A stretch of 64,000 nt of DNA from Candidatus Sericytochromatia bacterium (GCA_035285865.1 JAYKHS010000028.1:96001-160000); one strand, 5' to 3'; shown: positions 20,537 to 52,749, counted from the stretch's first letter. The notes: generated by a model from the sequence alone, not told the origin. Numbers and translations are program-made.

Positions 20537-21547
20537 TTGGCCGATGCCCCTCGTTCCATCCTCGTCACCGGCGCGGATGGCTTCATCGGCTCCCACCTGA
20601 CGGAAGCCTTGGTCCGGCGCGGGCATCGGGTCCGGGCCTTCGTCTTCTATAACTCCTTCGGTCGGCGCGGCTGGCTTGATGAGGCACCTGAGGACATCCA
20701 GGCCGAGCTTGATGTCTTTGCCGGGGACATCAGGGACCCCTACGGAGTCCGGAAAGCCCTCCAGGGTACGGACGTGGTGCTGCATCTCGCGGCCCTGATC
20801 GCGATTCCTTTCTCGTACCACTCTCCGGATGCCTACCTGGACACGAATGTCAGGGGTACGTTGAACGTGTTGCAGGCCGCCCGGGATCTCGGGCTGTCCC
20901 GCGTGGTTCATACGTCGACCAGCGAAGTCTATGGCACGGCCAAATTCGTGCCGATGACCGAGGAGCACCCCCTCCAGGGGCAGTCACCCTACTCGGCGAC
21001 CAAGATCGGGGCGGATCAACTCGCCTTGTCCTTCCATGCGGCATTCGGCCTGCCCGTTTCGGTGATACGTCCCTTCAATACCTACGGTCCGCGCCAGTCG
21101 GCGCGAGCCGTGATTCCAACCATCATTTCCCAGATTGCCTCCGGGATGCGCACCATTCGGCTCGGCTCCTTGCATCCCACTCGGGATTTCAGCTATGTGG
21201 CGGATACGGTCCGTGGCTTCATCGCGATGGCCTCGGCTGATGCGGCTGTTGGCCGCGTGGTGAACCTCGGCAGCGGGTTCGAGGTCTCCGTAGGGGACAC
21301 GGCACGCCTCGTGGCCGCCTGCATGGGAGCCGAGGTTGCGATCGAATCCGAGGATGCCCGGACACGTCCCGAGAAGAGTGAAGTGGAGCGTCTGTGGTCG
21401 GACAATCGCCTCGCCCGTGATCTGCTGGGCTGGTCCCCTGAATATGGCGGACTCGAGGGCTTCAGAAGAGGGCTCGAGGAGACGATCACATGGTTCGGGA
21501 AGTCCGTGGATCGGGTCGGCTATCGGCCGGACCGATACGTCGTGTGA
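20537..21547 (+). CDS. legB: NDP-GlcNAc 4,6-dehydratase, LegB-like
   Basis: GADGFIGSHL, HLAALIAIPFSY, TSTSEVYGTA, QSPYSATK, RPFNTYGPRQSARAVIP; TTG start after GGAG. Confidence 0.85.
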   Translation: MADAPRSILVTGADGFIGSHLTEALVRRGHRVRAFVFYNSFGRRGWLDEAPEDIQAELDVFAGDIRDPYGVRKALQGTDVVLHLAALIAIPFSYHSPDAYLDTNVRGTLNVLQAARDLGLSRVVHTSTSEVYGTAKFVPMTEEHPLQGQSPYSATKIGADQLALSFHAAFGLPVSVIRPFNTYGPRQSARAVIPTIISQIASGMRTIRLGSLHPTRDFSYVADTVRGFIAMASADAAVGRVVNLGSGFEVSVGDTARLVAACMGAEVAIESEDARTRPEKSEVERLWSDNRLARDLLGWSPEYGGLEGFRRGLEETITWFGKSVDRVGYRPDRYVV

Positions 21548-21557
21548 GGGAGGCTCC

Positions 21558-22265
21558 GTGCGTGCCGTGATCCTGGCCGGCGGGAAGGGTACCCGCCTCA
21601 GGCCATACACTCTCGTCCTCCCCAAGCCCTTGGTGCCCATCGGAGACTATCCCATCCTCGAGGTGGTGATCCGGCAACTGGCGGCGAGCGGGTTCACCCA
21701 CGTCACCATGGCCGTGAACCACCTCGCCGAGTTGGTCGAGGCGTTCTTCGGGGACGGTCGACGCTGGGGACTGAAGATCGATTACTCGGTCGAATGTCGG
21801 CCGTTGAGCACGATGGCGCCCCTCAAGCTGATTCGGGATCTGCCCGATGACTTCCTCGTGATGAACGGCGATATCCTGACGGATGCGCCCTTCGAGCGGC
21901 TCTATCAGGAGCATGTCGCCGGGGGCAATCTTTTCACCATTTCCTCCTACCAGCGGGAGGTGCATGTGGACTTCGGGGTCCTGGAAACCGATGGGAACGG
22001 GCTGCTTCGGGGTTTTCAGGAAAAGCCCGTGCAGCGCCATGATGTCAGCATGGGGGTGTATGTCCTGAGCAGGCGGGTGCTTGAACACATCCCTGATGAT
22101 GTGCCGTTCGGTTTCGATGACCTCATGCTGGCCTTGTTGGGCAAAGGTGAGAAGGTCCACCTGCGAGGACATGAGGGTTACTGGCTGGATATCGGACGTC
22201 CGGATGACTACGTCGAGGCGGTCGAGCAGTTCGAACGCCAGAAGCATGCGTTCCTGAGGCAGTGA
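21558..22265 (+). CDS. Sugar-1-phosphate nucleotidyltransferase
   Basis: ILAGGKGTRLRPYT..PKPL, VMNGDIL, WLDIG; GGAGG SD before GTG 21558. Confidence 0.9.
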   Translation: MRAVILAGGKGTRLRPYTLVLPKPLVPIGDYPILEVVIRQLAASGFTHVTMAVNHLAELVEAFFGDGRRWGLKIDYSVECRPLSTMAPLKLIRDLPDDFLVMNGDILTDAPFERLYQEHVAGGNLFTISSYQREVHVDFGVLETDGNGLLRGFQEKPVQRHDVSMGVYVLSRRVLEHIPDDVPFGFDDLMLALLGKGEKVHLRGHEGYWLDIGRPDDYVEAVEQFERQKHAFLRQ

Positions 22266-22266
22266 G

Positions 22267-23322
22267 ATGAGAATCAACAAGGGCAACATCAGCCTGAGCC
22301 GCCTGAAGCAGCTGGGCTTCCATTTGCGGCGTGGTCGTGGGCATCTGCCGCGGTACATGGTCAACCGCTTCAAGTGGCATGTCTTCCCGCGCATCCGGAA
22401 GGTGGCGGACTTCCCCGATCACGTCGATATCGAGATTTCGAGCGCGTGCGACATGAAGTGCCCCATGTGCTACACGATCACTGATGCCTTCAAGGCAAGC
22501 GTCAAGAAGGGGTTGATGGACTGGGATCTCTACACGAAGCTCGTGGACGAGTGTGCTCGGAACGGGGTGTATTCGATTCGCCTCAGCCTGCGGGGAGAGC
22601 CTTTCGTGCATCCCCGCATCATCGACATGATCCGGTACGCCAAGGAGAAGGGCATACGGGAGGTTTCCACGCTGACGAACGGGCTCAAGCTCAATCCCGA
22701 GAAGTTCACCCAAGCGCTGGAGGCTGGTCTGGATTGGCTGACGATATCCTTTGACGGCCTTGGCGAAACTTATGAGAAGATTCGGCGCCCGGCCAAGTTC
22801 GAGGAGGCCCTGGCCAAGATCCGCGAGTACAAGGCCATCAAGGATGCCCGTCAGTCCGTGAAGCCCGTCATCAAGATCCAGTCGGTCTGGCCGGCCATCA
22901 AGGACGATCCCGAGGCCTTCTTCAGTACCTTTGCGCCTATCGCGGATGAGGTCGCGTCCAACCCTCTGATCGATTACCTCCACAACGACCAGGAAATCGA
23001 GTACGAGGAGCGATTCGAGTGTCCGGTGCTCTACCAGCGGCTGGTGGTCGGCTCGGATGGTCGGGTGCTGCTTTGCGTCAACGATGAGATGGGCAAGCAC
23101 ATCGTGGGAGATGCCAATGCCCAGTCCTTGAAGGAAGTGTGGCACGGACCGGCCCTGATGCAGGCGAGGGCGGACCATATGCGGCATCTGGGCGTGGCGA
23201 AGTACGATGCCTGTCGCGAGTGCTTCCTGCCACGCAAGACACGTGCCGTGCCGACGGTGGTCGGGGGTACCAAGGTCGCGATGGAGGAGTACGTGAATCG
23301 ACCTCAGGAGGTCGGCAAGTAA
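22267..23322 (+). CDS. Radical SAM protein with SPASM/twitch domain
   Basis: CDMKCPMC (CxxxCxxC), GEP, TNG; C-terminal C...C...CREC. Confidence 0.92.
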   Translation: MRINKGNISLSRLKQLGFHLRRGRGHLPRYMVNRFKWHVFPRIRKVADFPDHVDIEISSACDMKCPMCYTITDAFKASVKKGLMDWDLYTKLVDECARNGVYSIRLSLRGEPFVHPRIIDMIRYAKEKGIREVSTLTNGLKLNPEKFTQALEAGLDWLTISFDGLGETYEKIRRPAKFEEALAKIREYKAIKDARQSVKPVIKIQSVWPAIKDDPEAFFSTFAPIADEVASNPLIDYLHNDQEIEYEERFECPVLYQRLVVGSDGRVLLCVNDEMGKHIVGDANAQSLKEVWHGPALMQARADHMRHLGVAKYDACRECFLPRKTRAVPTVVGGTKVAMEEYVNRPQEVGK

Positions 23323-23323
23323 C

Positions 23324-24187
23324 GTGCGCCTGGTGCTGACGGGGGCGACCGGATTTCTGGGGGCTGCCGCGGCACGTGCCTTCGGGGCCGCCGGTCACGA
23401 GGTCGTGCCCTTCGCCCGGTCGCTCGGGCACGACTTGGGCACGGGGCAGGCCGTGCCCGCCATAGTTGCTGCCGCACCGGACGCCATCGTGCACCTTGCC
23501 GGTCGTACCTTCGTGCCCGAGAGTTGGCGTGAGCCGGCCCTCTTCGTCCGGGACAACGTGATGGCGACCCAGGAGGTTCTCGATGCCTGTCGGTTGACCG
23601 GCGCTTCCCTGCTGCACGTCAGTGCCTATGTGTACGGGCAACCGTGCTACCTGCCCATCGACGAGCGTCACCCGGTCGCGCCGGGGACCCCCTACGCGCA
23701 CAGCAAGTGGCTGGCCGAAGAGTTGTGCCGTTTCCAGGCCGGCGCCTTCGGCGTGCCCCTTACGGTGTTGCGCCCCTTCAACATCTACGGACCCGGCCAG
23801 CGTCCGCCGATGCTGGTGGCCGATCTCGCGAGCCAGTTGCTTCGTGACGGCCGGATGAAGGTCCTGGATCTGGAGCCTCGGCGCGATTTTCTGCATGTGG
23901 ACGACTTCTCAGCCGCCTTGGTCCGGATTCTGGATGCAGGCGCCTGGGGCCATACCTTCAATGTCGGGTCGGGACGTTCCCATTCGGTCCGGGAGGTGGT
24001 CGAGATTCTGGCCGCGGCCTGGCCTGGGGGTGCCGACTGGGCTTGCTCGGAACAGGTGCGTCCCGCCGAGGTTCCCGATGTGGTGGCCGACTGCGGGGCG
24101 CTTCGCGATGTCGTCGGCTGGGCGCCTTCCGTGACATTCGAGAAAGGGTTGCAGGCGATGATTCGCGAAATGCAGGTGCCGGCATGA
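23324..24187 (+). CDS. Extended SDR epimerase/reductase (4-keto-6-deoxy sugar reductase-like)
   Basis: TGATGFLG, YAHSK (YxxxK), RPFNIYGPGQ, RDFLHVDD. Confidence 0.85.
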   Translation: MRLVLTGATGFLGAAAARAFGAAGHEVVPFARSLGHDLGTGQAVPAIVAAAPDAIVHLAGRTFVPESWREPALFVRDNVMATQEVLDACRLTGASLLHVSAYVYGQPCYLPIDERHPVAPGTPYAHSKWLAEELCRFQAGAFGVPLTVLRPFNIYGPGQRPPMLVADLASQLLRDGRMKVLDLEPRRDFLHVDDFSAALVRILDAGAWGHTFNVGSGRSHSVREVVEILAAAWPGGADWACSEQVRPAEVPDVVADCGALRDVVGWAPSVTFEKGLQAMIREMQVPA

Positions 24188-25215
24188 CAGCCATCGTCGT
24201 TGAGGGGCGCCCCATCGGGCCGGGGCATCCGGTCTATGTGATTGCCGAAATCGGGGGCAATTTCACGACGGTCGATCAGGCCGTCGCGCTCATCGATGCT
24301 GCCGCGGCCAGCGGAGTCGATGCCGTGAAGTTGCAGACCTATCGGGCCGAGACCCTGTCCTCGACCCGTGCCATGTTCGACATGGAAAATACCGGCGTGA
24401 CCTCCCAGCATGCCTTGTTCAAGGCCTATGAGATCGATGCCGAGGCCCACGCATCCATCTTCGCGTACGCGCGGAGCCTTGGGCTTACGGTCTTCTCGAC
24501 GCCTTCTCATGCCACCGACGCCGACATGCTGCTCAGCTTGGGGGTGCCGGCCACCAAGGTGGGCTCGGACGATGCAGTGAATCTCCCCTTCCTTGCGCAC
24601 CTGGCACGTCAGGGACTGCCGATGCTGCTGTCTACCGGCATGTGCACGATGGCCGAGGTCGCGGACTCCGTTTCCACCATCCTGGGCGAGGGGCTCGACC
24701 AGCTGGTGCTGCTGCACGCCGTGACCAGCTATCCAACGCATCCGGATCACGTCAACCTGCGTGCCATGGTGGCCATGGGGCAGGCCTTCGGCTTGCCGGT
24801 CGGCTACTCGGATCACACGTTGGGGCCGGTTGCGTGCCTGGGTGCCGTCGCACTCGGCGCTTGCGTGATCGAGAAGCACTTCACGCTGGACAAGGCGGCC
24901 GAGGGCCCGGACCACATGCTTTCGGCCGACCCGGTCGAGATGGCGGCGCTCGTGGCCCAGGTGCGTGCGCTCGAGCGCATGTTGGGCGACGGGGTGAAGC
25001 GGCCTGCGGCAAGCGAGCGAACCACGCGGCTCAACAACCGCAAGAGTCTCGTGGTCCTTCGCGACCTGCAGGCCGGTGCGGTGCTGCGTGCCGATGATCT
25101 CGGGATCAAGCGCCCAGGTACCGGAATCGCCCCGAAGGACCTGCGTCAGGTCCTGGGTAGGGTCCTGCGCCGGGAGTTGGCTGCGGACGACGTCCTTACC
25201 TGGGATCACCTTTGA
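24184..25215 (+). CDS. NeuB-family nonulosonic acid synthase with C-terminal SAF domain
   Basis: YVIAEIGGN, DAVKLQT, LSTGM, VGYSDHT, IEKHFTLD, GPDH, KRPGTGI. Confidence 0.93.
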   Translation: MTAIVVEGRPIGPGHPVYVIAEIGGNFTTVDQAVALIDAAAASGVDAVKLQTYRAETLSSTRAMFDMENTGVTSQHALFKAYEIDAEAHASIFAYARSLGLTVFSTPSHATDADMLLSLGVPATKVGSDDAVNLPFLAHLARQGLPMLLSTGMCTMAEVADSVSTILGEGLDQLVLLHAVTSYPTHPDHVNLRAMVAMGQAFGLPVGYSDHTLGPVACLGAVALGACVIEKHFTLDKAAEGPDHMLSADPVEMAALVAQVRALERMLGDGVKRPAASERTTRLNNRKSLVVLRDLQAGAVLRADDLGIKRPGTGIAPKDLRQVLGRVLRRELAADDVLTWDHL

Positions 25216-25892
25216 GCCGCGTCGGTGTCGTGCTGCAGGCCCGGATGGGCTCGTCTCGCCTGCCCGGCAAGGTGCTGGCGCCGATCGCCGGAAGGCCGAT
25301 GCTGCTTCACATCCTCGACAGGCTGCGTGCCGCATCGACGCCGGATCGGATCATCGTGGCCACCAGTGTCACTCCTGCGGATGACGTGGTTGCGGGCCTC
25401 GTTGCCGACTATGGCGTGGCTTGTTACCGCGGTGATGCGGCGGACGTGCTTGATCGATATTGGCAGGCTACCCTCGTGCATGATTTGGCTCTGATCGTAC
25501 GGGCGACCGCAGACAATCCCCTGGTGGATCCGGTCGAATTGGATCGCCTGGTGGCGTTGCATGGCGCCACGGATGCAGACTACTGCCACGCGTTCGGTCG
25601 GCTGCCCTTGGGCGTTGGCGTGGAGAGCTTCTCGAGGGCTGCGCTCGCGCGTTCGTGGCGGGAGGGCCGGGCCCCGAATCATCGCGAGCACGTCAACGAG
25701 TACATCCAGGAGCGGCCGGACATTTTCGACATCCGCGCGTTGGACGTGCCTGAGGCCAAGGTTGCTCCGCACCTGCGCCTGACGGTCGACACCCCCGAGG
25801 ATCTGGAGCGTGCGCGGCGTGTCTATGACCGGCTTCATAGACCCGGTACCCAGATCCGGACCGAGGAGGTGATTGCGTTCTGCGCATCCTGA
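25212..25892 (+). CDS. SpsF-like cytidylyltransferase 1
   Basis: LQARMGSSRLPGKVL, RATADNPL, REHV, RLTVDTPED. Confidence 0.88.
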   Translation: MSRVGVVLQARMGSSRLPGKVLAPIAGRPMLLHILDRLRAASTPDRIIVATSVTPADDVVAGLVADYGVACYRGDAADVLDRYWQATLVHDLALIVRATADNPLVDPVELDRLVALHGATDADYCHAFGRLPLGVGVESFSRAALARSWREGRAPNHREHVNEYIQERPDIFDIRALDVPEAKVAPHLRLTVDTPEDLERARRVYDRLHRPGTQIRTEEVIAFCAS

Positions 25893-26863
25893 TTGCCTTC
25901 GAGGCCTCCCATCATCGTGGTCTCGGTCATCTGTTCCGAACGCTCACGCTGGCACGGGCGCTTCGGGGCCGTGGGCACGACATTTGCCTGGTCGCCAATC
26001 CCGAGCCTGTTGCGCGGAGCCGTTGCGCGTCCGATGGCTTCGAGTTGGTCGAGGTGCCTGGTCTGGACGGGACGGACTGGCAGCTTGCCCTTCTTCGCGC
26101 TCGTTCTCCGGATGTCTGGGTCGACGATCGTCTGGACACGACCCGAGCGCATGCCTTGGCACTGGGTGGCTTGCCGCGCCTCACCTTCGACGATCAGGGC
26201 GAAGGAGGGAGTCTCGCGCGTGCGAATGTCTGCGGGATGGTGCCGCCGTCTCCCGATGCGTCGGCCAATGCCTACCGGGGACCGGACTTCCTGGTGCTCG
26301 ACGAGCGCCTTACGACCTGGACACCAGCCGACCCGGCCGAGAAAGCGCCGTTGCTGCTGACCTTCGGGGGAAGCGATACCCACGGTCTCACGCCCAGGAT
26401 TCTGGCTGCCCTGGGGGGGGGATGGACCGGAGCGATGCCGGTTCATGTGATTACGGGACCGGCCTTTCGGCACGAAGAAGCGCTACTCGAAGCGTTGCGA
26501 CGATTTTCGGGCGAGATCGTCCACGCGTCTGCGGTGCCGGATTTGCTGCCTCTGATCGCCGGTGCCGGCATGGTCGTCTGTGCCGGGGGACTGACGGCCC
26601 ACGAATCGGCTGCGTTGGGCAGGGCCACCCTCGTCGTGGCCAGCGAGCCCCATGAAATTCCCCCGGCGCGTTACCTGGCCGATCGGGGCGCGTGCCGTTA
26701 CCTGGGCTATCGGGACGAAGATGTCGAGGCTCGCCTGGAGCGGGAGGTGCGTGCGTGGCTCGAGCATCCCGAAGCACGCGCGCGCGATGGCGCGATGGGC
26801 CGGGCCGTGGTCGACGGTCGGGGGCTCGAGCGCGTGGTGGCTATTCTTGAGGCGTGTGCGTGA
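25880..26863 (+). CDS. PseG/SpsG-like nucleotide-sugar hydrolase (GT-B fold); probable CTG start
   Basis: In-frame extension of ORF 26045..26863 gives LRILIAFEASHHRGLGHLFRTLTLA (G-x-GH motif); LTFGGSD; VDGRGLERV. Confidence 0.8.
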   Translation: MRILIAFEASHHRGLGHLFRTLTLARALRGRGHDICLVANPEPVARSRCASDGFELVEVPGLDGTDWQLALLRARSPDVWVDDRLDTTRAHALALGGLPRLTFDDQGEGGSLARANVCGMVPPSPDASANAYRGPDFLVLDERLTTWTPADPAEKAPLLLTFGGSDTHGLTPRILAALGGGWTGAMPVHVITGPAFRHEEALLEALRRFSGEIVHASAVPDLLPLIAGAGMVVCAGGLTAHESAALGRATLVVASEPHEIPPARYLADRGACRYLGYRDEDVEARLEREVRAWLEHPEARARDGAMGRAVVDGRGLERVVAILEACA

Positions 26864-27567
26864 GCCGTCGGCGGGTCGTCATCCATCAGCCGGACTTCCT
26901 GCCCTATCTGGGGTTCTTCGACCGGCTGCTCGACTGCGATTTGTTCATCCTTCTCGACCATGTGCAGTTCACCAAAGGTGGCTGGCATAACCGGGATCGC
27001 ATCAAGTCTCCCGAGGGACCGCGCTGGCTCACGGTTCCCGTCCAGTCGCCCACGGGGTTGGCCATCGCCGAAGTCCGCCTGACTGCTGATGCGACGTGGC
27101 CTGATCGTCATCTGCGGCAGTTGGCGGAAGCCTATCGCAAGGCGCCCGGCTACGCCGAGGTTCGGGGAAGCCTGGAGGCACTCTATCGGGACCTGCCTGC
27201 GGGCCTCGCGGATTTCAACATGCGGGGACTGGTGTGGCTGATGGAGGTTTTCGGCATCACGGTTCCTGTTGTCCGCTCCTCCAGCCTCCGGCCGCAGGGC
27301 CGAAGCAATGCGATGCTTGTCGATCTGCTGCAGAAGGTCGGCGCCACCGAGTACCTGTCGGGGGTGGGGGCACGAGCGTACTTCGACCCCGAGGTATTCG
27401 CCAAGGTCGGCGTGCCCGTGCTCTGGCAGGATTTCCGGCATCCATTCCATCCCCAGCTGCACGGAGCCTTCGAGCCTTTCCTCAGCAGCATCGATCTGCT
27501 GATGAACCTGGGCCTGACAGAGGCTCGACGGGTGCTGAGAGAGGGGGCAAGGTCACCTGTGCGCTGA
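26860..27567 (+). CDS. WbqC family protein
   Basis: HQPDFLPYLGFF, LDHVQF, NRDRI, WLTVP, YLSG.GA..Y, LSSIDLLMN. Confidence 0.9.
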   Translation: MSRRRVVIHQPDFLPYLGFFDRLLDCDLFILLDHVQFTKGGWHNRDRIKSPEGPRWLTVPVQSPTGLAIAEVRLTADATWPDRHLRQLAEAYRKAPGYAEVRGSLEALYRDLPAGLADFNMRGLVWLMEVFGITVPVVRSSSLRPQGRSNAMLVDLLQKVGATEYLSGVGARAYFDPEVFAKVGVPVLWQDFRHPFHPQLHGAFEPFLSSIDLLMNLGLTEARRVLREGARSPVR

Positions 27568-27590
27568 GATCTCCCGGGATCCAATCAGGA

Positions 27591-28502
27591 TTATCTGTGT
27601 GCTGTCCCTGTCTTCCGGAGCAGATAGACGCTGTACATGCTGAAGGATCCTGGCCAAGTCCGGGCCAGGGCGTGGCATATACGGACCAGGATTGGGCTGC
27701 AACCGGATTGGGCCGTCAGGTCTTCGAGGATATTTTGGGGATGCTCCCTTCCTGACTCGCTTTCTGCCTTTCCGAAGGTGCGATGGTACTTGGCCATGCT
27801 CAGGTAGCGGACAGCCTCCAGAACACCATAATCGTCGCCAGTTTCCAGGACTTCCTCGATGATCAAGCCGGTATCCTGCAGTGCGTTGCGAACATCGTTC
27901 CTGGTGAAATAGACGGCCATGAAGTCTTCGGGCAACCGAGTTCGGGTCATTCGCGCCAGCAGGCGGGACAGCTTGATGGATGCGACAAGCAGCGGGGCCT
28001 GGTTCCAGACGATGAGGACCAACGTGCCATTTTCTGTCAGGATTCTTGACGATTCACGCAGCAATGCTTGCTGCGATTTTCGGTCTTCATAGAGGATCAG
28101 CAAGCTTGCCATGATGGCCATGTCGAAGCTTTTGCTCTCGATTCCGGTGTTGAACGCGTCTCCTGTGATAAATTTTGCTTCTGGATAGGATTTTTTAGCG
28201 GCAATTATGCTGTTTTCGGCATAATCTAGGCCAGTATATTCTATTTCTGGGAATATCCTAGAAATAGGCAGGTTTACTCCGTTACCGCATCCTATGTCGA
28301 TAATTCTTTGGGGGTTTTTTCTTAAAATTGCATTATATACGTGATTTATTGTATTATGGAATCTGTTTTTGACTAGGTGGTCCATGTTGGTGAAGTCGCT
28401 GCCGAACTCGCGTTCGTTGGAGAATCTCCTGTAGAAGGACTTGTAGTCATCGATGGGATTTTCGTCGTTGTGCTGGCGAAGGTAGCTGAAGGCACGAAAC
28501 AC
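27591..28502 (-). CDS. Class I SAM-dependent methyltransferase, inverted and partly AT-rich
   Basis: IIDIGCGNG motif I, GLD, GDA, RILTENG. Confidence 0.85.
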   Translation of the reverse strand: MFRAFSYLRQHNDENPIDDYKSFYRRFSNEREFGSDFTNMDHLVKNRFHNTINHVYNAILRKNPQRIIDIGCGNGVNLPISRIFPEIEYTGLDYAENSIIAAKKSYPEAKFITGDAFNTGIESKSFDMAIMASLLILYEDRKSQQALLRESSRILTENGTLVLIVWNQAPLLVASIKLSRLLARMTRTRLPEDFMAVYFTRNDVRNALQDTGLIIEEVLETGDDYGVLEAVRYLSMAKYHRTFGKAESESGREHPQNILEDLTAQSGCSPILVRICHALARTWPGSFSMYSVYLLRKTGTAHR

Positions 28503-28671
28503 CTGATACCTCTTGCCGGGATGTTCCCGAGAATTTTGCCTTGTGGGTGTTGCTGGAAAACTGTTGATGATACCGTCGAGACCGTGATCGCGCCCCGAAG
28601 CAGCGGTCGGCGGATCTTGTCCTTTGCCGGAAGGGTACGATCAGCATTCCCTGCGATGTGGAAGGATTGCC

Positions 28672-29301
28672 ATGAATGTTCTGGCCATAGGGGCCCACTT
28701 CGATGACATCGAGCTCGGCTGCGGGGGCGCCCTCGCCAAGCACGCAGCGGCAGGAGATCGGGTCCTTGCCTATGTGGCAACGGTGTCAGGATTCTCGAAT
28801 CCTGACAATCAGGTCGTTCGATCCAGCGAACAGGCGCTTGCCGAAGGCCGGATGGCCATGGACGTGCTCTGTGTGCAGCTCATTCCGGGAGGTTTTCAGA
28901 CCTTGCAGGTCGAGTTCACGGACGACCTGAACCGGGAGATCATCAGGATTGTCGAGCGAGAGCAGATCGACCTCGTCTATACACACTGGGCGGGAGACAT
29001 TCACCACGACCACCAATCAGTGGCGCGAGCCTCGCTGCATTCCTGTCGCCACGTCAAGCGCATGTTGATGTACCGGAGCAACTGGTACCACGCGACCGTG
29101 GACTTCCGCGGAAACTTCTACATCGACATAACGGACACCTGGGCCTTGAAGGAGAAGGCGATACTGTGCCATGCATCGGAAGTCGACCGGACGGCTCATC
29201 GGTGGATCGACTTCTTTCGCAATGAGGCGGAGAATGCCGGCCAGCGGATTGGAGTTCGCCGGGCGGAGGTGTTCGAGGTCGTGAAGTGGCTGTGGACGTG
29301 A
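28672..29301 (+). CDS. PIG-L/LmbE family deacetylase
   Basis: AIGAHFDDIELGCGG and HHDH motifs; C-terminal AEVF. Confidence 0.9.
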   Translation: MNVLAIGAHFDDIELGCGGALAKHAAAGDRVLAYVATVSGFSNPDNQVVRSSEQALAEGRMAMDVLCVQLIPGGFQTLQVEFTDDLNREIIRIVEREQIDLVYTHWAGDIHHDHQSVARASLHSCRHVKRMLMYRSNWYHATVDFRGNFYIDITDTWALKEKAILCHASEVDRTAHRWIDFFRNEAENAGQRIGVRRAEVFEVVKWLWT

Positions 29302-29323
29302 TTTGAGGAGGCATGAACGCGGC

Positions 29324-30082
29324 ATGAAAATCGTCGCGACCGTCGAGGTCCGAATGGGGTCCAGCAGATTGCCCGGAAAGGCCATGATGGACGTTGTCGG
29401 ACGGCCATTGTTGGCGCGTGTGATAGAGCGTATCCGCCTCTGTCCCTCGATCGGGCATATCGTGGTGGCTACGACGGTTCATCCGGATGACGACGTGATT
29501 GAATCGTTCTGCTTGCAGTCAGGCGTGGCCGTTCATCGAGGCAGTGAGGAGGACGTGCTCCAGCGGGTCGTGGATGCCGCCGAGGGGGCGGGAGCCGACC
29601 TCGTTGTCCAGTTCGGAGGGGACTCTCCGTTCATCGACTGGCAGTTGGTGGAGGAACTTCTGCGTGCATACAGGTCCGATCCGTCCGTCGATCTCCTGAC
29701 CAACTGCCTGACGCTCACCTATCCCCTCGGGGTTTACACCTTCGTGGTGCCGATGGCCAATCTGAGACTCATCGCGCTCGAGGCGAAGAGGCCGGACGAG
29801 CGGGAAGATGTCACTCGGGCCATCTGGGAACATCCGGAACGATGGCGTTTGCGCAACTTGGAGGCTCCTGATGCCTTGCGTCGGCCACATGTCCGATTGA
29901 CGGTGGATTACCCCGAGGACCTCGCGCTGACCCGGGAACTCTACGCGCGTCTCCTGCCGACGCGTCCCGCCTTCACGACACGGGATGTTCTGGCGGTGCT
30001 CGACGCCGAGCCGACCCTTGCCCGCATCAATGCCCATTGCGTGCAACGTTCGGCACCCCACATTCCTCGGGATGGGGCCTGA
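29324..30082 (+). CDS. SpsF-like cytidylyltransferase 2
   Basis: RMGSSRLPGK, GSEEDVLQR, GDSPFID, RLTVDYPED. Confidence 0.85.
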   Translation: MKIVATVEVRMGSSRLPGKAMMDVVGRPLLARVIERIRLCPSIGHIVVATTVHPDDDVIESFCLQSGVAVHRGSEEDVLQRVVDAAEGAGADLVVQFGGDSPFIDWQLVEELLRAYRSDPSVDLLTNCLTLTYPLGVYTFVVPMANLRLIALEAKRPDEREDVTRAIWEHPERWRLRNLEAPDALRRPHVRLTVDYPEDLALTRELYARLLPTRPAFTTRDVLAVLDAEPTLARINAHCVQRSAPHIPRDGA

Positions 30083-31120
30083 ATGGCCGTAGGTCTGCGG
30101 GTCGCCATCGCCGGCTGCGGAGCCATTGCCGGCGGTTACGACGAGGCAAGCGGATTCGCCCATGCCTACACCCACGCGGGTGCGGTTCGTCGTCATCCCC
30201 GCTTCGACCTGGTTGCGGTCGCCGAGCCTAGGGAAGACCGGCGTGCGGCCTTCCGGAAGGCATGGAACGTACCAGTCGCGCACGCCACCGTCGGGGCCAT
30301 GCTCGATCAGGGGCCGTTCGATCTCCTTTGTATCTGCGTGCCCGACGCGCATCACGGGAGCGTGGTGAGGCTTGCCCTTGAGCGGGGCGGCGCGCGCGCC
30401 ATTCTTGTCGAGAAGCCTCTGGCCATGACGGCTGAGGAGGCGGTTGCGTTGGCGGATCGGGCAGCGGATGCCGGTGTGTCGCTCTACGTCAACTACAATC
30501 GGCGATGGGACCCCTTGCACGAGCGGGTTCGGACTTGGATTGCCGACGGGGGGCTGGGCGTGCTCCAAGGTGGCATCGGACATTACGTGCGTGGCTTGCG
30601 GCACAACGGCACCACGATGGTCCAGACGCTTCGCCGCCTCCTCTCCAGGGAGGTCCGTTCCGTCCGTGCCATCCGCTCCGAGCCTTCCTCACTGGACGGG
30701 GATCTGGCACTCGATGGAGTCCTCGAGTTTTCGTGCGGTACTGCAGTCTGGCTGCAGGCTGCCGATAAAGCCGAGTACGGACACAGTGTCTTCGAGATCG
30801 ACCTCATGGGCAACAGGGGTCGGGTGCGCCTGCATGACAACGGCTATCAGGTTGAGGTGTCGCAAACGGCCGAGTACCGACGGTACCCTGGCTTTCGGGA
30901 GCTGGTCCGCTGGCCGGAACTTGAGGCCACCTGGCCCGAGGGACGCATGAGGGAAACCTTGCTGGCGACGCTCGACGAGGTGGCCGACGGCCTCGACCGC
31001 AATGTGCTCTCGCTGTCGCATGCCCGCGATGCCTGTCGGGACCTGAGAGTGGTTGAGGCGCTGGAGCGTTCGTGGCGTGCGGATGGGGCGCGTTGTGCCC
31101 CCGTGGTCGATTCGAGGTAG
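30083..31120 (+). CDS. Gfo/Idh/MocA family oxidoreductase
   Basis: GCGAIA Rossmann motif, VEKP, VNYNRR. Confidence 0.9.
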   Translation: MAVGLRVAIAGCGAIAGGYDEASGFAHAYTHAGAVRRHPRFDLVAVAEPREDRRAAFRKAWNVPVAHATVGAMLDQGPFDLLCICVPDAHHGSVVRLALERGGARAILVEKPLAMTAEEAVALADRAADAGVSLYVNYNRRWDPLHERVRTWIADGGLGVLQGGIGHYVRGLRHNGTTMVQTLRRLLSREVRSVRAIRSEPSSLDGDLALDGVLEFSCGTAVWLQAADKAEYGHSVFEIDLMGNRGRVRLHDNGYQVEVSQTAEYRRYPGFRELVRWPELEATWPEGRMRETLLATLDEVADGLDRNVLSLSHARDACRDLRVVEALERSWRADGARCAPVVDSR

Positions 31121-31123
31121 CTC

Positions 31124-32413
31124 ATGTCGAAGTTGGCATTGTTCGGCGGTTCGCCGGTCCGCACCCGACCCTTCCCGGCCTACAACTCAATCGGGGACGA
31201 AGAGAAGCGGGCCGCACTCGAGGTCCTCGACACGGGCCGGCTGTCCGAGTTCATCGGGCGCCGCTGCGAGCTCTTCGGCGGGGGACGCAAGGTCCTCGAG
31301 CTGGAGGCGCTGGTCCAGGAACGCTTCAAGGTGCGCCACGCCGTGAGCATGAACTCGGCGACTTCCTGCATCTATGCGGCCCTGGGGGCCATCGGCATCG
31401 GTGCAGGTGACGAAGTCATCGTTTCGCCCTACAGCATGTGCATCTCGGCCACGGCACCCTTCCTGTATCAGGCAATTCCGGTCTTCGCTGATCTCGAGCC
31501 CGACTATTTTTGCCTGGACCCGGAGAGTGTGAGGCGCAACATCACCCCGCGTACTCGGGCCATTCTGACGGTCGACACGTTTGGCCAGAGTTCTGCCATG
31601 GAAGAGTTGCGAGCCATCGCGGATGCCCACGGCCTCAAGATCATCGTGGACTGTGCCCACGCGATGGGCGTCGACTACCAGGGGCGGTCGGCCGGAACGC
31701 TTGGCGACATCGGCATCTACAGCTTGAACGCACACAAGATTATCCAATGCGGCGAGGGAGGCCTTGCAGTAACGGACGATGACGATCTCGCCTTGAAGAT
31801 GAAGCTGATTCGAAACCACGCGGAAGCGGCAGCCGAGGATTTCGGCGTCGACCTCGTGAACATGCTGGGCCAGAACTACCGCATGCCCGAGATCGAAGCG
31901 GCTATTGCCATTGAGCAGGTTCGCAAGATGGATGGGCTCATCGCCCAGCGGGTGGAGTTGGCCGAACATCTGTCGCGTCGCCTGGCAGCCATCGACGGCC
32001 TCACGCCGCCGGCAATTCGCCCGGGTGCCACGCACGCCTATTACATCTATCCCATCAAGTACGACCAAGTCCGCATGGGTGTTCCGCGCGAGCGCATCCT
32101 CGAGGCACTGCGCGCAGAGGGTATTCCGATGTATCGGTTTGCCGGTGGCTATGTCCGGCCGCAGTATTACGAGGCGATTTTCCGGGAGCGGACGGTCTTC
32201 GCCAAGGGCCTGCCCTTCTCGTTGCCCCAGTGCGCGCGCATTCCCGATTACAGTGCGGCGGCCTGCCCTGTCATCGACAGGTTGTATCGCGAAGAGATGA
32301 TTGTCTTCCATCTGATCTATCCACCACTGACGATTGCCGACATGGATGAGATCGCCGACGCCTTCGAGAAGGTCTTCGCCCATATCGACGACCTGCGATG
32401 CGTGCCCGCCTGA
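31124..32413 (+). CDS. DegT/DnrJ/EryC1/StrS PLP aminotransferase
   Basis: NSATS, GDEVIV, DCAHA, SLNAHKIIQCGEGG (catalytic Lys), GQNYRM. Confidence 0.93.
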   Translation: MSKLALFGGSPVRTRPFPAYNSIGDEEKRAALEVLDTGRLSEFIGRRCELFGGGRKVLELEALVQERFKVRHAVSMNSATSCIYAALGAIGIGAGDEVIVSPYSMCISATAPFLYQAIPVFADLEPDYFCLDPESVRRNITPRTRAILTVDTFGQSSAMEELRAIADAHGLKIIVDCAHAMGVDYQGRSAGTLGDIGIYSLNAHKIIQCGEGGLAVTDDDDLALKMKLIRNHAEAAAEDFGVDLVNMLGQNYRMPEIEAAIAIEQVRKMDGLIAQRVELAEHLSRRLAAIDGLTPPAIRPGATHAYYIYPIKYDQVRMGVPRERILEALRAEGIPMYRFAGGYVRPQYYEAIFRERTVFAKGLPFSLPQCARIPDYSAAACPVIDRLYREEMIVFHLIYPPLTIADMDEIADAFEKVFAHIDDLRCVPA

Positions 32414-33444
32414 TCGTCTTCTCGTCCGACCCCGGTGGGGCGTCATGCCTGATTCCGGTTCTCAAGGACCTGCCCGAATCGTGGGCACTCAAGGTCTTTG
32501 CCGGCCGGGATGCCCGAGAAGCGTTTGCGAACGCGGGGTTCGATCCTGTCGCGACGGAGCCCGATTCGATTGACGAGATGCTAGAGGGTCGCGTCACTGC
32601 CGTCCTGACGTCGGCATCGAGTCTTCCGGAGCGGGACATGACGGAGAAGCGATTGTGGCGACGCGCCGCGGAACGCGATGTTCCTTCTTTGGCCGTGCTG
32701 GACCAGTGGCAATGCTACGTCGCGCGCTTCAGTGGTCCGCAGGGTCGGGAGCCTCTCGGATACCTGCCGACGGCCATTGCCGTGATGGATGAACAGGCCA
32801 GGACCGAGATGATCCGCGAAGGGTTTCCGGAAGATCGGCTCGTCGTGACGGGCCAACCGGCACTCGGGGTCGTTCGGGAACGGGTTGTATCACTGAAGGC
32901 TGCGGATTCGACCCCCGGGGCCCGGGTGACTTGGTTCAGCCAGCCGCTGCGTGCTCTGTTCGGGCGTGATCTTGGCTTCGACGAACACGACATGCTTGGC
33001 ATCGTGCGCACGGCCATGGGCATGCTGGGAGAGGGTCGCCCTCGTCTCGTCTGCAAGTTGCATCCGCGGGAGCGTCGCGAGGACTTTCCGCCCGATGAGG
33101 CGGATTTCGAGGTCGTGGCGGGCGATCGGGACAATGATGCCTTGCTGGCGGCCAGTGACGTCGTGCTCGGGATGAGCACGGTCATGCTCGTGCATGCCGT
33201 CCTTGCCGGGATCCCGACCTTGAGTGTCTCGCCGGACACCGGCGACGCCCGCAACCGTTGCCATCCTGTGGAGATGGGGGTGGTGGCCCGTCTGGCCACC
33301 CCGGATGCGGTTGCGGAACACCTGCAGGGTCTGCTGAATGACCCGGAGTGTCGGCGCGCCGCCGTCGCCAGGTTGGCCTCATTCCCGTCGCATGAAGGTG
33401 CCGTGGATGCGGTCCTGGCCCTACTTTCGCGGTTGGTGGCATGA
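32398..33444 (+). CDS. GT-B-fold protein (glycosyl/glycerophosphotransferase-like)
   Basis: SDPGGA, VTGQP, KLHPRE and SDVVLGMST pattern; coupled to neighbouring genes. Confidence 0.6.
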   Translation: MRARLIVFSSDPGGASCLIPVLKDLPESWALKVFAGRDAREAFANAGFDPVATEPDSIDEMLEGRVTAVLTSASSLPERDMTEKRLWRRAAERDVPSLAVLDQWQCYVARFSGPQGREPLGYLPTAIAVMDEQARTEMIREGFPEDRLVVTGQPALGVVRERVVSLKAADSTPGARVTWFSQPLRALFGRDLGFDEHDMLGIVRTAMGMLGEGRPRLVCKLHPRERREDFPPDEADFEVVAGDRDNDALLAASDVVLGMSTVMLVHAVLAGIPTLSVSPDTGDARNRCHPVEMGVVARLATPDAVAEHLQGLLNDPECRRAAVARLASFPSHEGAVDAVLALLSRLVA

Positions 33445-34469
33445 GCAAGTTCGACACTGGAGTCGACAAGGAACTGCGTCGGCTAATCCGGCAAATGGAG
33501 CGGACCTGCTCGGAGATGATGGAGCGTGAGCGACGCGCTCCCGGCACCGTGCTCGAGTCTCGTGCTTGTCCGGCATGTGGTGAGGAGCGGAGCTCGGGTC
33601 AGCTTGCAGGCAGCCTTTTTCCCTACGTGCGCTGCGCGACCTGCACCCTGCTGTACATGAGCCCTGCGCTGCCGGCAACCACCGTGGAGGCCGGTTTCAG
33701 CCACGAGGACACCTGGACCCGTGAATACTGGTCCTTGATGAAGGCCAGGATTCGTCTCGACGACATTCCGGGCCCCGTGCAGGCGCGGCAGCACCCGGTG
33801 CTGCGGGAAGTCCTGAGTCATCGTTCGGGCGGGCGTCTTCTGGATGTCGGATGTTCCTTCGGGCAGTTCATGGCGCACGCACGGCACTTCTTTGAGGTGG
33901 AAGGTCTCGAGATCAATCCGGAAACGGCAGCCATGGCGCGAGCGCGTGGTCTTGTCGTGCATGAGGGCCGCATCGAAGACAGGGAGGGAAAGGACGTCTA
34001 CGACGTCATCACGCTCAACCAGTTACTGTACGGCCTTCACGACCCGCTGGCTCTTGTTCGCGAGACTGCTCGGCTGCTGCGGCCGGGAGGTCTGCTCTAC
34101 ATCAATACGCCTCATGCGGACTCGTTGGCCATGCGTTGGTTCGCCGGCAAGCACTGCCATGTCCTCGGCAAGGTGAACCTGAATGTATTCAACCGACGGT
34201 CCCTGATGACGATGGCCGGTAGGGCGGGGCTCGAGCCGGTGGCCTTTCATACCGAGTGGCTGAATCTGTATGGGCCGGACATTCTGGTTCATGCGCTGCT
34301 ACCTCGGGCGTTCGTGCACCGACGAAATACGTTCGTGCCTGCCTATTCGGCCTGGTGCCGAATGGACGAGTGGCTTCAGCGCCGCTTGATGGGCAACAGA
34401 TTTCCGGCACTTGGTGACTACGCCGTGGCCGTCTTCTGCAAGCCGGGAAGGGTGGTTGTCGGTGCTTGA
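33441..34469 (+). CDS. Class I SAM methyltransferase with N-terminal Zn ribbon
   Basis: CPACG...CATC, LLDVGCSFG, GLEIN, LRPGG. Confidence 0.88.
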   Translation: MSKFDTGVDKELRRLIRQMERTCSEMMERERRAPGTVLESRACPACGEERSSGQLAGSLFPYVRCATCTLLYMSPALPATTVEAGFSHEDTWTREYWSLMKARIRLDDIPGPVQARQHPVLREVLSHRSGGRLLDVGCSFGQFMAHARHFFEVEGLEINPETAAMARARGLVVHEGRIEDREGKDVYDVITLNQLLYGLHDPLALVRETARLLRPGGLLYINTPHADSLAMRWFAGKHCHVLGKVNLNVFNRRSLMTMAGRAGLEPVAFHTEWLNLYGPDILVHALLPRAFVHRRNTFVPAYSAWCRMDEWLQRRLMGNRFPALGDYAVAVFCKPGRVVVGA

Positions 34470-34586
34470 CGCAAGCGGCGAACGCCTCGATCGGCATCTG
34501 TATTGGCGTACAATGGCCGCAGTCGGTCCCACGCACTGGGTGCTCTCGCCGAGGGCAGGGTGTTCGCAAGGCGGATGGCAGGAGCG

Positions 34587-37597
<3,011 letters not shown>

Positions 37598-37601
<4 letters not shown>

Positions 37602-52121: not shown

Positions 52122-52739
52122 ATGCCGCGTCGCGAAGATCTACCGGTACTCGTCGTCTGGGGCCTCGTGCTCGTGCTCGCCGTCCGTGCCTGGACCGCTG
52201 CGCCGGGCCTTGCGCCGACCCTGCTCGTGCTCTTCCAGGGGCTCGTGCTGAGACAGTTGCTTGGCCGGGCGCCTGCCGTCTCGCGGGGCGGCGTGCGTGC
52301 CACGCTGTTCGCCTTTCTGGGTACCGCCACACCTCTGCTGTTCCGCCCCGCCCCGGTGCCATGGCCGGAACCGTGGGCTCCGGCCGTGGCCGTCCTCGCA
52401 GGCCTCGTGCAGGTGTCTGGATTGCTGCTGATGCTGGCTGCCGTCGTGGCCTTGGGACGATCATTCGGGGTACGTCCGGCCTTGCGACGCCTCGTCACCA
52501 TCGGTCCCTACGCGCGGATGCGCCATCCGCTCTATGTCGGGGAGTGGCTTTGTGCGGCTGGCCTCTGCCTCGCCCATCCTTCGGCGTGGAATCTGCTGGT
52601 CCTTCTCTGTACCGGTTGCCTGTTGGCCCTGCGGGCGTGGCTCGAGGAGCGGGTGCTCGCGGCCGATTCGGCGTGGTCAGGCTATGCTCGGCGCGTGCCG
52701 GCGTGGCCTCGGCGGCTCAGGCAGCCCCCGGTGGCGTAG
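52122..52739 (+). CDS. ICMT/PEMT-family membrane methyltransferase
   Basis: LVTIGPYARMRHPLY and EERVL motifs; several TM helices. Confidence 0.8.
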   Translation: MPRREDLPVLVVWGLVLVLAVRAWTAAPGLAPTLLVLFQGLVLRQLLGRAPAVSRGGVRATLFAFLGTATPLLFRPAPVPWPEPWAPAVAVLAGLVQVSGLLLMLAAVVALGRSFGVRPALRRLVTIGPYARMRHPLYVGEWLCAAGLCLAHPSAWNLLVLLCTGCLLALRAWLEERVLAADSAWSGYARRVPAWPRRLRQPPVA

Positions 52740-52749
52740 AATCGGAGGC

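Follow-up and report, generated by a model that had tools for sequence, protein, structure and literature searches.

A conserved nonulosonic acid cassette from Candidatus Sericytochromatia with a predicted reductase step at C4 and two putative tailoring systems

Introduction

A stretch of 64,000 nucleotides from Candidatus Sericytochromatia bacterium (GCA_035285865.1 JAYKHS010000028.1:96001-160000), hereafter called the window, contains at positions 20537 to 34469 a gene cluster for nonulosonic acid biosynthesis, and the question it raises is which sugar such a set of genes would make. The initial annotation listed a LegB-like dehydratase, a nucleotidyltransferase, NeuB, a PseG-like hydrolase, a short-chain dehydrogenase/reductase (SDR), a radical S-adenosylmethionine (SAM) enzyme, a Gfo dehydrogenase with a DegT aminotransferase, PIG-L, WbqC, two methyltransferases and two cytidylyltransferases. 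Scans of the open reading frames (ORFs) and families of the window recovered this entire list as intact genes, all on the plus strand with the sole exception of one methyltransferase. The locus is built of two modules: a conserved core, consisting of LegB, a nucleotidyltransferase, an RMD-like reductase, a twitch radical SAM enzyme, NeuB, SpsF, the PseG-like hydrolase, WbqC and PIG-L, and a separate portable add-on of a second SpsF (SpsF2), Gfo, DegT and a transferase. It is a real, conserved and chemically unstudied variant of nonulosonate biosynthesis. Comparison of its genes with related loci favors, at a probability that we put at roughly 0.6, a product without an amine at C7, namely, a 7-hydroxy (7-OH), 9-deoxy nonulosonate further decorated with an N-aminoacyl group and an extra amine. 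The predicted hydroxyl is at the position of the second amine of legionaminic and pseudaminic acids.

Results

A reductase and an aminotransferase-acetyltransferase pair share one slot. The SDR had been proposed to reduce the 4-keto intermediate. Its closest solved structures are GDP-6-deoxy-D-mannose reductases (6x3b and, at E 5e-27, 2pk3). Among 15 genomes carrying the cassette-type nucleotidyltransferase, the SDR lies within the next two genes in 12, a DegT aminotransferase and a GNAT acetyltransferase are found there instead in two (G052 and G829), and one (G615) has neither. Since the SDR and the DegT-GNAT pair occupy the same position, they behave as alternatives in one slot. The slot DegTs of G052 and G829 score 317 and 328 bits on the PseC model. 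The radical SAM gene of G052 is split by a contig end and continues on a second contig, where NeuB, SpsF and PseG-like genes follow, and this NeuB falls inside the same clade as the window NeuB (63-row tree, below). These comparisons support the proposed 4-keto reduction as likely, and the slot exchange is the strongest comparative support for a predicted hydroxyl at C7. The further suggestion that the sugar is fusaminic-acid-like stands only for that predicted 7-OH: LegB is non-inverting, and no amidotransferase family that could account for a 5-acetimidoyl group was present among the locus ORFs, to which that search was confined. As a separate observation, locus L214 (G829:C22:158000-177999) contains three NeuB-like genes and two radical SAM paralogues together with DegT, GNAT, formyltransferase, PIG-L and WbqC genes.

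The missing enzymes were not found elsewhere in the 82.7%-complete genome. The initial annotation reported neither a PseH-type GNAT nor a NeuD/LegH-type hexapeptide acetyltransferase, and we found the same. No GNAT, hexapeptide acetyltransferase or NeuC/LegG family was detected among the locus ORFs scanned, and profile searches (TIGR03570, TIGR03585, PF02350, PF01041, TIGR04181 and TIGR03568) of the source genome (G000), which is 82.7% complete, gave no NeuD, PseH or NeuC above cut-off. Thirteen proteins of that genome were examined as candidates for the missing acetyltransferase, aminotransferase or NeuC, and none was LegH, PseH or NeuC. The best of them were gamma-carbonic anhydrase, LpxA, LpxD, RimI, CysE, DapD and WecB (the top match to the NeuC model), plus a WbpD-like hexapeptide protein; three of the 13 either lacked a family match at E<=1e-22 or had an unrelated one. 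The WbpD-like protein belongs to a separate, second polysaccharide cluster on contig C14 (G000:C14:4500-14500) in which Gfo, hexapeptide acetyltransferase, DegT and 2-epimerase genes (WbpB/D/E/I-like) are accompanied by a membrane dehydratase and another DegT. The top hexapeptide, GNAT and epimerase matches are either housekeeping enzymes or members of that cluster. The source genome, whose lineage looks to us like a relative of cyanobacteria without photosynthesis, has one copy of NeuB, a second weak match being 3-deoxy-D-arabino-heptulosonate 7-phosphate (DAHP) synthase. Another hexapeptide protein of the window, at 52534-53928, resembles carbonic anhydrases and, weakly, CcmM, scoring below cut-off on both, and is not a sugar acetyltransferase.

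Across 10 carrier genomes, seven of them metagenome-assembled genomes (MAGs), LegC, NeuC (TIGR03568) and NeuD were each above cut-off in 0 of 10, and in five of them a threshold as loose as 1e-10 gave no NeuC-like match. Five cassettes have an optional hexapeptide gene (71 bits), which is absent from the others, including that of the window; the acyltransferase it encodes may cap the aminoacyl amine or act in O-acetylation.

The synthase belongs to a separate clade, and the dehydratase does not. The NeuB phylogeny that had been suggested, against PseI, LegI and NeuB, was constructed. In a quick tree of 140 rows, the window NeuB lies in its own 18-row clade, two rows of which are second fetches of genomes already present, with a support of 98 in the Shimodaira-Hasegawa-like approximate likelihood ratio test (SH-aLRT). 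A 63-row rebuild, from which five long branches and the two duplicates were removed and in which 42 randomly drawn outside rows were kept, gave a 19-row clade with an SH-aLRT of 96. The clade is separate from the PseI-context and NeuC-linked clades, these reference clades being labelled by gene context rather than by characterised enzymes. NeuC is absent from all loci of the 18-row clade, which contain PseG-like, SpsF, WbqC or radical SAM genes. The window NeuB scores 333 bits on TIGR03569 (cut-off, 400) and 275 bits on the PseI model (cut-off, 340).

The LegBs of the cassettes (12 rows), by contrast with this, are interspersed among canonical LegBs (26 rows), and their monophyly was rejected by the approximately unbiased test (p-AU 9e-65, quick tree). 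Because of this mixing, the LegB substrate is probably the usual GDP-GlcNAc. The window LegB reaches 71 bits on the PseB model (cut-off, 408) and 88 bits on GMD. The PseG-like protein scores 71 bits on TIGR03590 against a cut-off of 154, and a single-sequence search of the PDB with it gave no match; a profile of 16 orthologues had PseG (3hbm) as its top match, with G14-x-G16-H17 invariant.

The core is conserved across distant bacteria. We surveyed the best 80 NeuB loci from species-representative genomes. Eight of them have a NeuB 53 to 64% identical to that of the window, and seven of these eight, together with Geothermobacter (NeuB, 41%), share a block of dehydratase, SDR, NeuB, SpsF, PseG-like and WbqC genes. 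Among the core loci, only L036, which has a different dehydratase, departs from the pairing of LegB with the nucleotidyltransferase, and only Geothermobacter lacks the cognate radical SAM gene. PIG-L is present wherever the contig extends; the contig of L031 ends upstream of NeuB. Core synteny was seen in Rhizobium hidalgonense, Neorhizobium, Methylotenera, Methylophilaceae, Rickettsiales, Rhizomicrobium and Geothermobacter, and the block also occurs in Rhizobium sp. WYJ-E13. On the chromid of Neorhizobium galegae HAMBI 1141 it forms an island flanked by unrelated genes and has no DegT; the cluster goes unmentioned in the accessible part of the paper on the N. galegae genome. Across cassettes, PIG-L and WbqC are 46 to 70% identical, and the nucleotidyltransferases are 55 to 63% identical, versus 24 to 40% for the other NTP-transferase matches in NeuB loci.

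Measured by the radical SAM marker, the distribution is patchy, with 2 of 401 genomes in Rhizobiales, 4 of 401 in the phylum of Geothermobacter and 2 of 47 in the class of the window. The synthase clade is common among strains of the Rhizobium leguminosarum complex, where one cluster at 90% identity has 417 members; among 40 members read, the 15 listed comprise 12 synthases and three cytidylyltransferases, and 417 therefore overstates the number of synthases. G981 has almost all of the window locus, including both core and add-on, next to genes that, by our ORF reading, are flagellin- and flgK/flgL-like. Two congeners have a PseB/PseC-like nonulosonate cluster at the same site beside hisS (L113, G082:C95:1-20000; L111 and L220, G001:C3), which argues that this is an exchangeable surface-glycan locus. 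The cluster of G082 also holds PIG-L and formyltransferase genes.

A radical SAM enzyme is tied to the pathway. The family is large, with 2,151 proteins at E<=1e-60 among 3,889 candidates. All of the 120 close homologues compared keep seven cysteines (C61/65/68 in a CxxxCxxC motif and C252/270/316/319 for an auxiliary cluster). C96 occurs in 112 of the 120 and is lost in rhizobial-type orthologues, and no other extra column exceeds 21 of 120. By both profile and fold, the top match is BtrN, and DesII and BlsE are also among the matches. Family members are fused to NeuB, to an SDR of the same family as that of the cassette (39% identical) and to SpsF; among the fusion proteins P0123, P0124, P0125, P0177, P0178 and P0248 the partners are NeuB, SDR, methyltransferase, cytidylyltransferase and D-2-hydroxyacid dehydrogenases. 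In the fetched DNA of 12 metagenomic loci with at least 50% identity to the radical SAM enzyme, NeuB was present in nine and WbqC in seven, and the cassette SDR in none. The link of the enzyme to nonulosonate synthesis is thus broader than its link to the SDR.

As the cassette lacks both the C2 epimerisation of LegG and the C5 inversion of PseB, we prefer a stereochemical or redox role on the sugar backbone. Stereochemical bookkeeping indicates that, without epimerisation, a gluco or galacto precursor leads to D-glycero-D-gulo/ido or D-glycero-L-manno/gluco products, and that an L-altro precursor leads to the Pse (pseudaminic acid) or Fus (fusaminic acid) series. Action on the aminoacyl group was considered and kept as a minor option: the gene adjoins WbqC in several loci, but G720 lacks WbqC. 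The G052 cassette has no WbqC or PIG-L gene in the following 6 kb, and two WbqC genes lie on other contigs of that genome. We also note that at L124 to L126 and L210 the same radical SAM family accompanies a NeuB of another clade. A DUF4910 protein and a GNAT-like ORF encoded there are possibly an analogous deacylase/acyltransferase pair replacing PIG-L and WbqC.

PIG-L and WbqC resemble a deacetylase-ligase pair. An AlphaFold model of WbqC (pLDDT, 92; 14-sequence alignment) matched BshC best (Z 14.8; 227 of 237 residues; root mean square deviation, 3.2), followed by class I aminoacyl-tRNA synthetases. Foldseek also ranked BshC first for this model, though only at an E value of 4e-3. PIG-L retains the metal motifs HFDD and HHDH. 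In bacillithiol synthesis, BshB and BshC deacetylate and then aminoacylate, and by analogy PIG-L and WbqC likely swap an N-acetyl for an aminoacyl group. Glycine is reportedly a donor with precedent in the WbqC family. The initial annotation had PIG-L freeing an amine for re-acylation by WbqC or by an acyl carrier protein (ACP) module; the BshC-like fold is comparative evidence for the part assigned to WbqC. The module of ACP and fatty acyl-AMP ligase (FAAL) does not occur in the DNA fetched for the majority of core cassettes and is therefore not needed for re-acylation. Judged by titles and abstracts, the papers on WbqC that a literature search gave include no mechanistic account.

The add-on is portable. 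In the phylum of Geothermobacter, 12 of 401 genomes have an orthologue of the window DegT, and one plasmid carries another; so does 1 of 121 genomes drawn around G1010. Around the 13 former loci, Gfo is present in 11, the GT-B-fold protein in 11 (beside DegT), an SpsF-like gene in nine, NeuB in nine and a second DegT-type gene in six to seven; three of the loci lacking NeuB are short or at a contig end. At one further locus, the block lies beside a LegC-like DegT and a PglD-type acetyltransferase. The window DegT itself scores 164 bits on LegC (cut-off, 420) and 204 bits on PseC (cut-off, 423). That Gfo and DegT install an amine elsewhere on the sugar, as had been proposed, gains comparative support from this portable block, which also occurs beside clusters already holding a canonical aminotransferase. 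Since such clusters would already make the C7 amine, the new one would go to C4 or C8.

A structure search with DegT gave 8gyh, which we take to be a cyclitol aminotransferase, at the top and KdnA (5k8b; E 2e-49) second, with 2-deoxy-scyllo-inosose aminotransferases also matched. The best NCBIfam match of Gfo is inositol 2-dehydrogenase. C8 is the likeliest site of amination, given that KdnA is the second-best relative and that an 8-amino nonulosonate is known from Flexibacter maritimus, as far as the accessible part of the source goes (PMC3210612). By this analogy, the add-on likely adds an amine at C8. A direct link between the add-on and the sugar of F. maritimus was considered and not adopted.

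The GT-B-fold ORF at 32398-33444 has no Pfam or NCBIfam match. Its atlas matches are mixed GT-B clusters, one row of which is named Epimerase_2; in its top feature cluster, PF07388 occurs in 13% of members, and it resembles glycerophosphotransferase clusters. We considered this ORF as a hidden LegG and disfavor the assignment, as it travels with Gfo and DegT and not with the core.

The sugar has candidate transferases and acceptors. The N-terminal DUF115/Maf-like domain of the fusion protein at 34503..37601 is, from its family, a candidate nonulosonate transferase, and in the majority of core cassettes the gene after PIG-L is Maf-like. The FAAL part of this fusion and the SGNH-ACP protein suggest, from their families, acylation of a glycan; the G981 counterpart of the SGNH-ACP part belongs to a protein of 1,739 amino acids that also has GT2 and tetratricopeptide repeat (TPR) domains. 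The source genome has flagellin-family genes (seven matches), the Geothermobacter cassette adjoins flagellar genes and a Maf domain, and the rhizobial cassette is placed after ABC-transporter polysaccharide genes.

Discussion

A proposed route and its alternatives. From the observed gene identities, synteny, slot exchange, absences and folds we infer each chemical step of the following route. The nucleotidyltransferase and LegB would produce GDP-4-keto-6-deoxy-GlcNAc, whose C4 the RMD-like SDR would reduce to an alcohol, replacing LegC plus LegH or PseC plus PseH. The twitch radical SAM enzyme would carry out a backbone redox or epimerisation step in place of the absent LegG or PseB activity. 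The PseG-like enzyme would then remove GDP, the clade-specific NeuB would condense the sugar with phosphoenolpyruvate, and the first SpsF (SpsF1) would yield the CMP-sugar. PIG-L would strip the N-acetyl group and the BshC-fold WbqC would add an amino acid, and the SpsF2-Gfo-DegT-GT-B block would oxidise and transaminate another hydroxyl, most likely at C8 by analogy with 8-amino-Kdo (Kdo8N). Transfer by the Maf-like and GT-B proteins would probably be to flagellin or another surface protein in the source genome and to a polysaccharide in rhizobia. A fuller version of the proposal is more doubtful, and we offer it tentatively: a further route distinct from those to neuraminic (Neu), legionaminic (Leg) and pseudaminic acid, in which the radical SAM enzyme sets the backbone stereochemistry (or removes the C7 oxygen), the slot chooses between 7-OH and 7-NHAc, and portable modules add the 5-N-aminoacyl and 8-amino groups. 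Its product would be an undescribed 5-aminoacylamino-8-amino-7-hydroxy-9-deoxy nonulosonic acid, and thus an unreported sialic-acid-like sugar on many R. leguminosarum-complex strains.

Several observations weigh against a 7-OH product of this kind. G615 (an incomplete MAG of 2.1 Mb) has LegB, the nucleotidyltransferase and the radical SAM gene with the add-on DegT and no SDR or NeuB detected, L033 carries the SDR plus a divergent DegT-like gene, and in Geothermobacter the SDR is accompanied by no closer radical SAM proteins than paralogues at 26% identity. The SDR adjoins the radical SAM gene, and is once fused with it, and may serve that enzyme and not LegB. The related cassettes that display the slot exchange are not independent observations. 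The source genome, being 82.7% complete, also encodes an aminotransferase in the C14 cluster (PseC model, 372 bits, below cut-off) that could cross-feed the pathway, and an unassigned GNAT on contig C5 matches the PseH model at E 2e-6, below cut-off. In the radical SAM enzyme, no cysteine beyond the seven is invariant. This weakens a NeoN-type epimerase role, since NeoN, the precedent for radical C5 epimerisation, is described in the accessible part of the source as requiring Cys249 as hydrogen atom donor (PMC10991966). The C8 position of the added amine and glycine as the acyl group are analogies. Finally, B. subtilis is reported, in the part of the paper available, to make Leg with the PseG-like SpsG and without NeuC (PMC7439481), and a missing NeuC alone therefore does not imply a new sugar.

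That last precedent also favors an ordinary 5,7-diamino sugar of the Leg or Pse type, in which the window DegT or the C14 aminotransferase would aminate C4, WbqC rather than an acetyltransferase would acylate the amine so formed, and the SDR and radical SAM enzyme would only adjust stereochemistry. The operon does contain a DegT, G615 has the add-on DegT and no detected SDR, and the same NeuB clade serves the DegT-GNAT variant. We nevertheless regard this outcome as unlikely, because isolates have core cassettes free of an internal DegT, with the single DegT-type match at E<=1e-20 in Neorhizobium G205 lying about 21 kb away in another cluster, and because the window DegT falls far below the LegC and PseC cut-offs and its orthologues coexist with canonical aminotransferases. 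Only slightly less credible, and still unlikely, is a core that makes the 7-OH sugar while SpsF2-Gfo-DegT-GT-B makes a separate CMP- or CDP-activated compound, for example an aminocyclitol or a second ulosonate. The inositol dehydrogenase-like Gfo, the cyclitol aminotransferase matches of DegT, a cytidylyltransferase of the block's own and a transferase like glycerophosphotransferase clusters would fit such a division; the block lacks a cyclitol synthase or kinase, NeuB is nearby in nine of 13 loci, and KdnA is the second-best structure.

The adjacency of the radical SAM gene and the SDR (11 of 12 SDR-bearing cassettes; fused in P0124) would also suit a dehydratase/reductase pair that removes the C4 oxygen and leads to a 7-deoxy nonulosonate. 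AprD4/AprD3 and DesII are models for such a pair, and the profile and fold searches recovered DesII as well as BlsE. We consider this improbable: the radical SAM gene is kept without the SDR in G052, G829 and, in fetched DNA, 12 of 12 close metagenomic loci, one SDR would have to perform two different reductions, and the top match, BtrN, is a dehydrogenase. Least probable is a start from GDP-mannose, giving a nitrogen-free 9-deoxy-Kdn through GDP-D-rhamnose. The SDR is RMD-like, the best NCBIfam match of the nucleotidyltransferase is mannose-1-phosphate guanylyltransferase (below cut-off), and with a manno sugar the pathway could do without a 2-epimerase; against this, the dehydratase is interchangeable with canonical LegB and scores poorly on GMD at the value given above, and the conserved PIG-L and WbqC need an amine.

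Relation to known systems. With the GDP-Leg pathway of Campylobacter (PtmE, LegB, LegC, LegH, LegG, LegI and LegF), the locus shares a true LegB, an adjacent nucleotidyltransferase and the succession of hydrolase, synthase and CMP activation. It lacks LegC, LegH and LegG and has the RMD-like reductase, the radical SAM enzyme and the PseG-like hydrolase instead; its nucleotidyltransferase is without CBS domains, its cytidylyltransferase is SpsF-type, and its NeuB lies outside the NeuC-linked clade. With the Pse pathway (PseB, C, H, G, I and F), it has in common a PseG-like hydrolase with an invariant N-terminal histidine and SpsF-like activation, as in some Pse clusters, whereas its dehydratase is LegB and not PseB, PseC and PseH are missing, the hydrolase scores below the TIGR03590 cut-off, and the synthase neither reaches the PseI cut-off nor groups with the PseI-context clade.

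Three better-known enzyme systems resemble parts of the cassette. PIG-L is paired with a BshC-fold enzyme as in BshB/BshC, but WbqC has 237 amino acids versus 540, is 13% identical to BshC and is found in a nonulosonate cassette. The radical SAM enzyme has the CxxxCxxC motif and four invariant C-terminal cysteines of BtrN (PDB 4m7t), to which it is only 18% identical, and its context is sugar-nucleotide metabolism. As in 8-amino-Kdo synthesis by KdnB and KdnA, a dehydrogenase and a DegT aminotransferase lie beside an ulosonate pathway. KdnB is an Fe-type alcohol dehydrogenase, whereas the window enzyme belongs to Gfo/Idh/MocA and the block brings along a cytidylyltransferase and a GT-B protein; by analogy, the add-on may work like KdnA/KdnB without being a member.

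The Sps system of B. subtilis (SpsM, C, D, G, E and F) is alike in its non-inverting dehydratase, PseG-like hydrolase, SpsF-type cytidylyltransferase and lack of NeuC, and with SpsG as precedent the PseG-like hydrolase alone is not new. As described in the available part of that paper, Sps differs in being UDP-linked, with the aminotransferase SpsC and the GNAT SpsD, and is a six-enzyme route without reductase, radical SAM enzyme, WbqC or PIG-L (PMC7439481). The locus resembles the Leg, Pse and Sps routes in its working and lacks defining features of all three; the reductase slot, the radical SAM step and the tailoring blocks are what set it apart.

Fusaminic acid of Fusobacterium nucleatum ATCC 25586 is, according to the accessible parts of two reports, a natural 5-amino-3,5,9-trideoxy nonulosonate with a 7-OH (PMC13014188, PMC7371886). 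It shares the predicted 7-OH trideoxy skeleton, a likeness by predicted product. It carries a 5-acetimidoyl group, and its configuration, tentatively L-glycero-L-gluco, fits a 6-deoxy-L-AltNAc precursor, in contrast to the non-inverting LegB of the window. As listed, the papers on fusaminic acid that a search gave include none on its biosynthesis. Those consulted on nonulosonate pathways deal with Neu, Leg and Pse, and in them we found neither genes for a 7-OH member nor a radical SAM step. Searches of openly accessible article text found no account joining radical SAM enzymes with nonulosonic acids or PseG.

The cassette offers candidate enzymes for a 7-OH route, for radical chemistry in the synthesis of sialic-acid-like sugars and for the reaction of the WbqC family, and the natural swap of reductase and aminotransferase/GNAT in one slot provides a built-in control. 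Its hosts include plant symbionts that are in culture and easy to work with (N. galegae HAMBI 1141 and R. hidalgonense FH14), and its study could bring to light a surface sugar of nodulating bacteria that has gone unreported.

Gene layout and neighboring genes

Table 1. Genes of the nonulosonate locus and its immediate surroundings (window coordinates)
Feature	Positions	Strand	Evidence or remark
GT2 + TPR glycosyltransferase	19240..20373	-	divergent from operon; 60% identical to GT2 domain fused to SGNH-ACP protein, G981 locus
LegB, GDP-GlcNAc-type 4,6-dehydratase (core)	20537..21547	+	TIGR04180, 507 bits (cut-off 475)
Nucleotidyltransferase without CBS domains, cassette-specific clade (core)	21558..22265	+	PF00483 only
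BtrN-like twitch radical SAM/SPASM enzyme (core)	22267..23322	+	BtrN top profile and fold match; fusions to NeuB, SDR, SpsF
RMD-like SDR, predicted GDP-4-keto-6-deoxy-HexNAc 4-reductase (core, C4 slot)	23324..24187	+	6x3b, E 1e-40; GxxGxxG and YxxxK intact
Nonulosonate synthase, separate NeuB clade (core)	24184..25215	+	under NeuB and PseI cut-offs
SpsF-type cytidylyltransferase 1 (core)	25212..25892	+	PF02348; 39-52% identity to cassette orthologues
PseG/SpsG-like NDP-sugar hydrolase, CTG start (core)	25880..26863	+	profile match PseG 3hbm, 270 positions, E 6e-10
WbqC, BshC/class-I-aaRS (aminoacyl-tRNA synthetase)-like fold, predicted N-aminoacyl ligase/transferase (core)	26854..27567	+	PF08889; model pLDDT 92
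Class I methyltransferase, opposite-strand insert	27591..28502	-	50% GC; family scan
PIG-L/BshB-like de-N-acetylase (core)	28672..29301	+	PF02585; best NCBIfam BshB1, below cut-off; 59-70% identity to orthologues
SpsF-type cytidylyltransferase 2 (add-on)	29303..30082	+	PF02348; 36% identity to SpsF1; travels with Gfo/DegT
Gfo/Idh/MocA dehydrogenase (add-on)	30083..31120	+	family scan
DegT aminotransferase, closer to KdnA and cyclitol aminotransferases than to LegC/PseC (add-on)	31124..32413	+	PDB 8gyh and KdnA 5k8b matches
GT-B-fold protein, candidate transferase for modified sugar (add-on)	32398..33444	+	atlas TM 0.76-0.86 to GT-B clusters
Class I methyltransferase	33441..34469	+	family scan; counterpart in G981 and G615 loci
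DUF115/MptE-like (Maf-like) + TPR + fatty acyl-AMP ligase fusion	34503..37601	+	directly downstream; weak CstII match, E 0.12
SGNH + ACP protein	37598..39271	+	homologue in G981 locus

Neighboring genes of the cluster abut or overlap, with gaps of -16 to +33 nt, save around the minus-strand methyltransferase. This gene has a GC content at third codon positions (GC3) of 0.61, WbqC and PIG-L abut in other cassettes, and it is probably a later insertion between the two. The PseG-like gene has no ATG, GTG or TTG at the N terminus of its product and appears to start at a CTG at 25880-25882, which lies 10 nt after GAGGAGG and overlaps the end of SpsF1. A contig from another study is letter-identical over 25849-26003, the CTG included. 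This start, the GT-B-fold ORF, the split into core and add-on and the place of the radical SAM gene in the core had been overlooked in the earlier reading of the DNA. Directly downstream of the cluster, at 39391-40890, is a gene for a proline-rich protein with LysM and C39-like peptidase domains.

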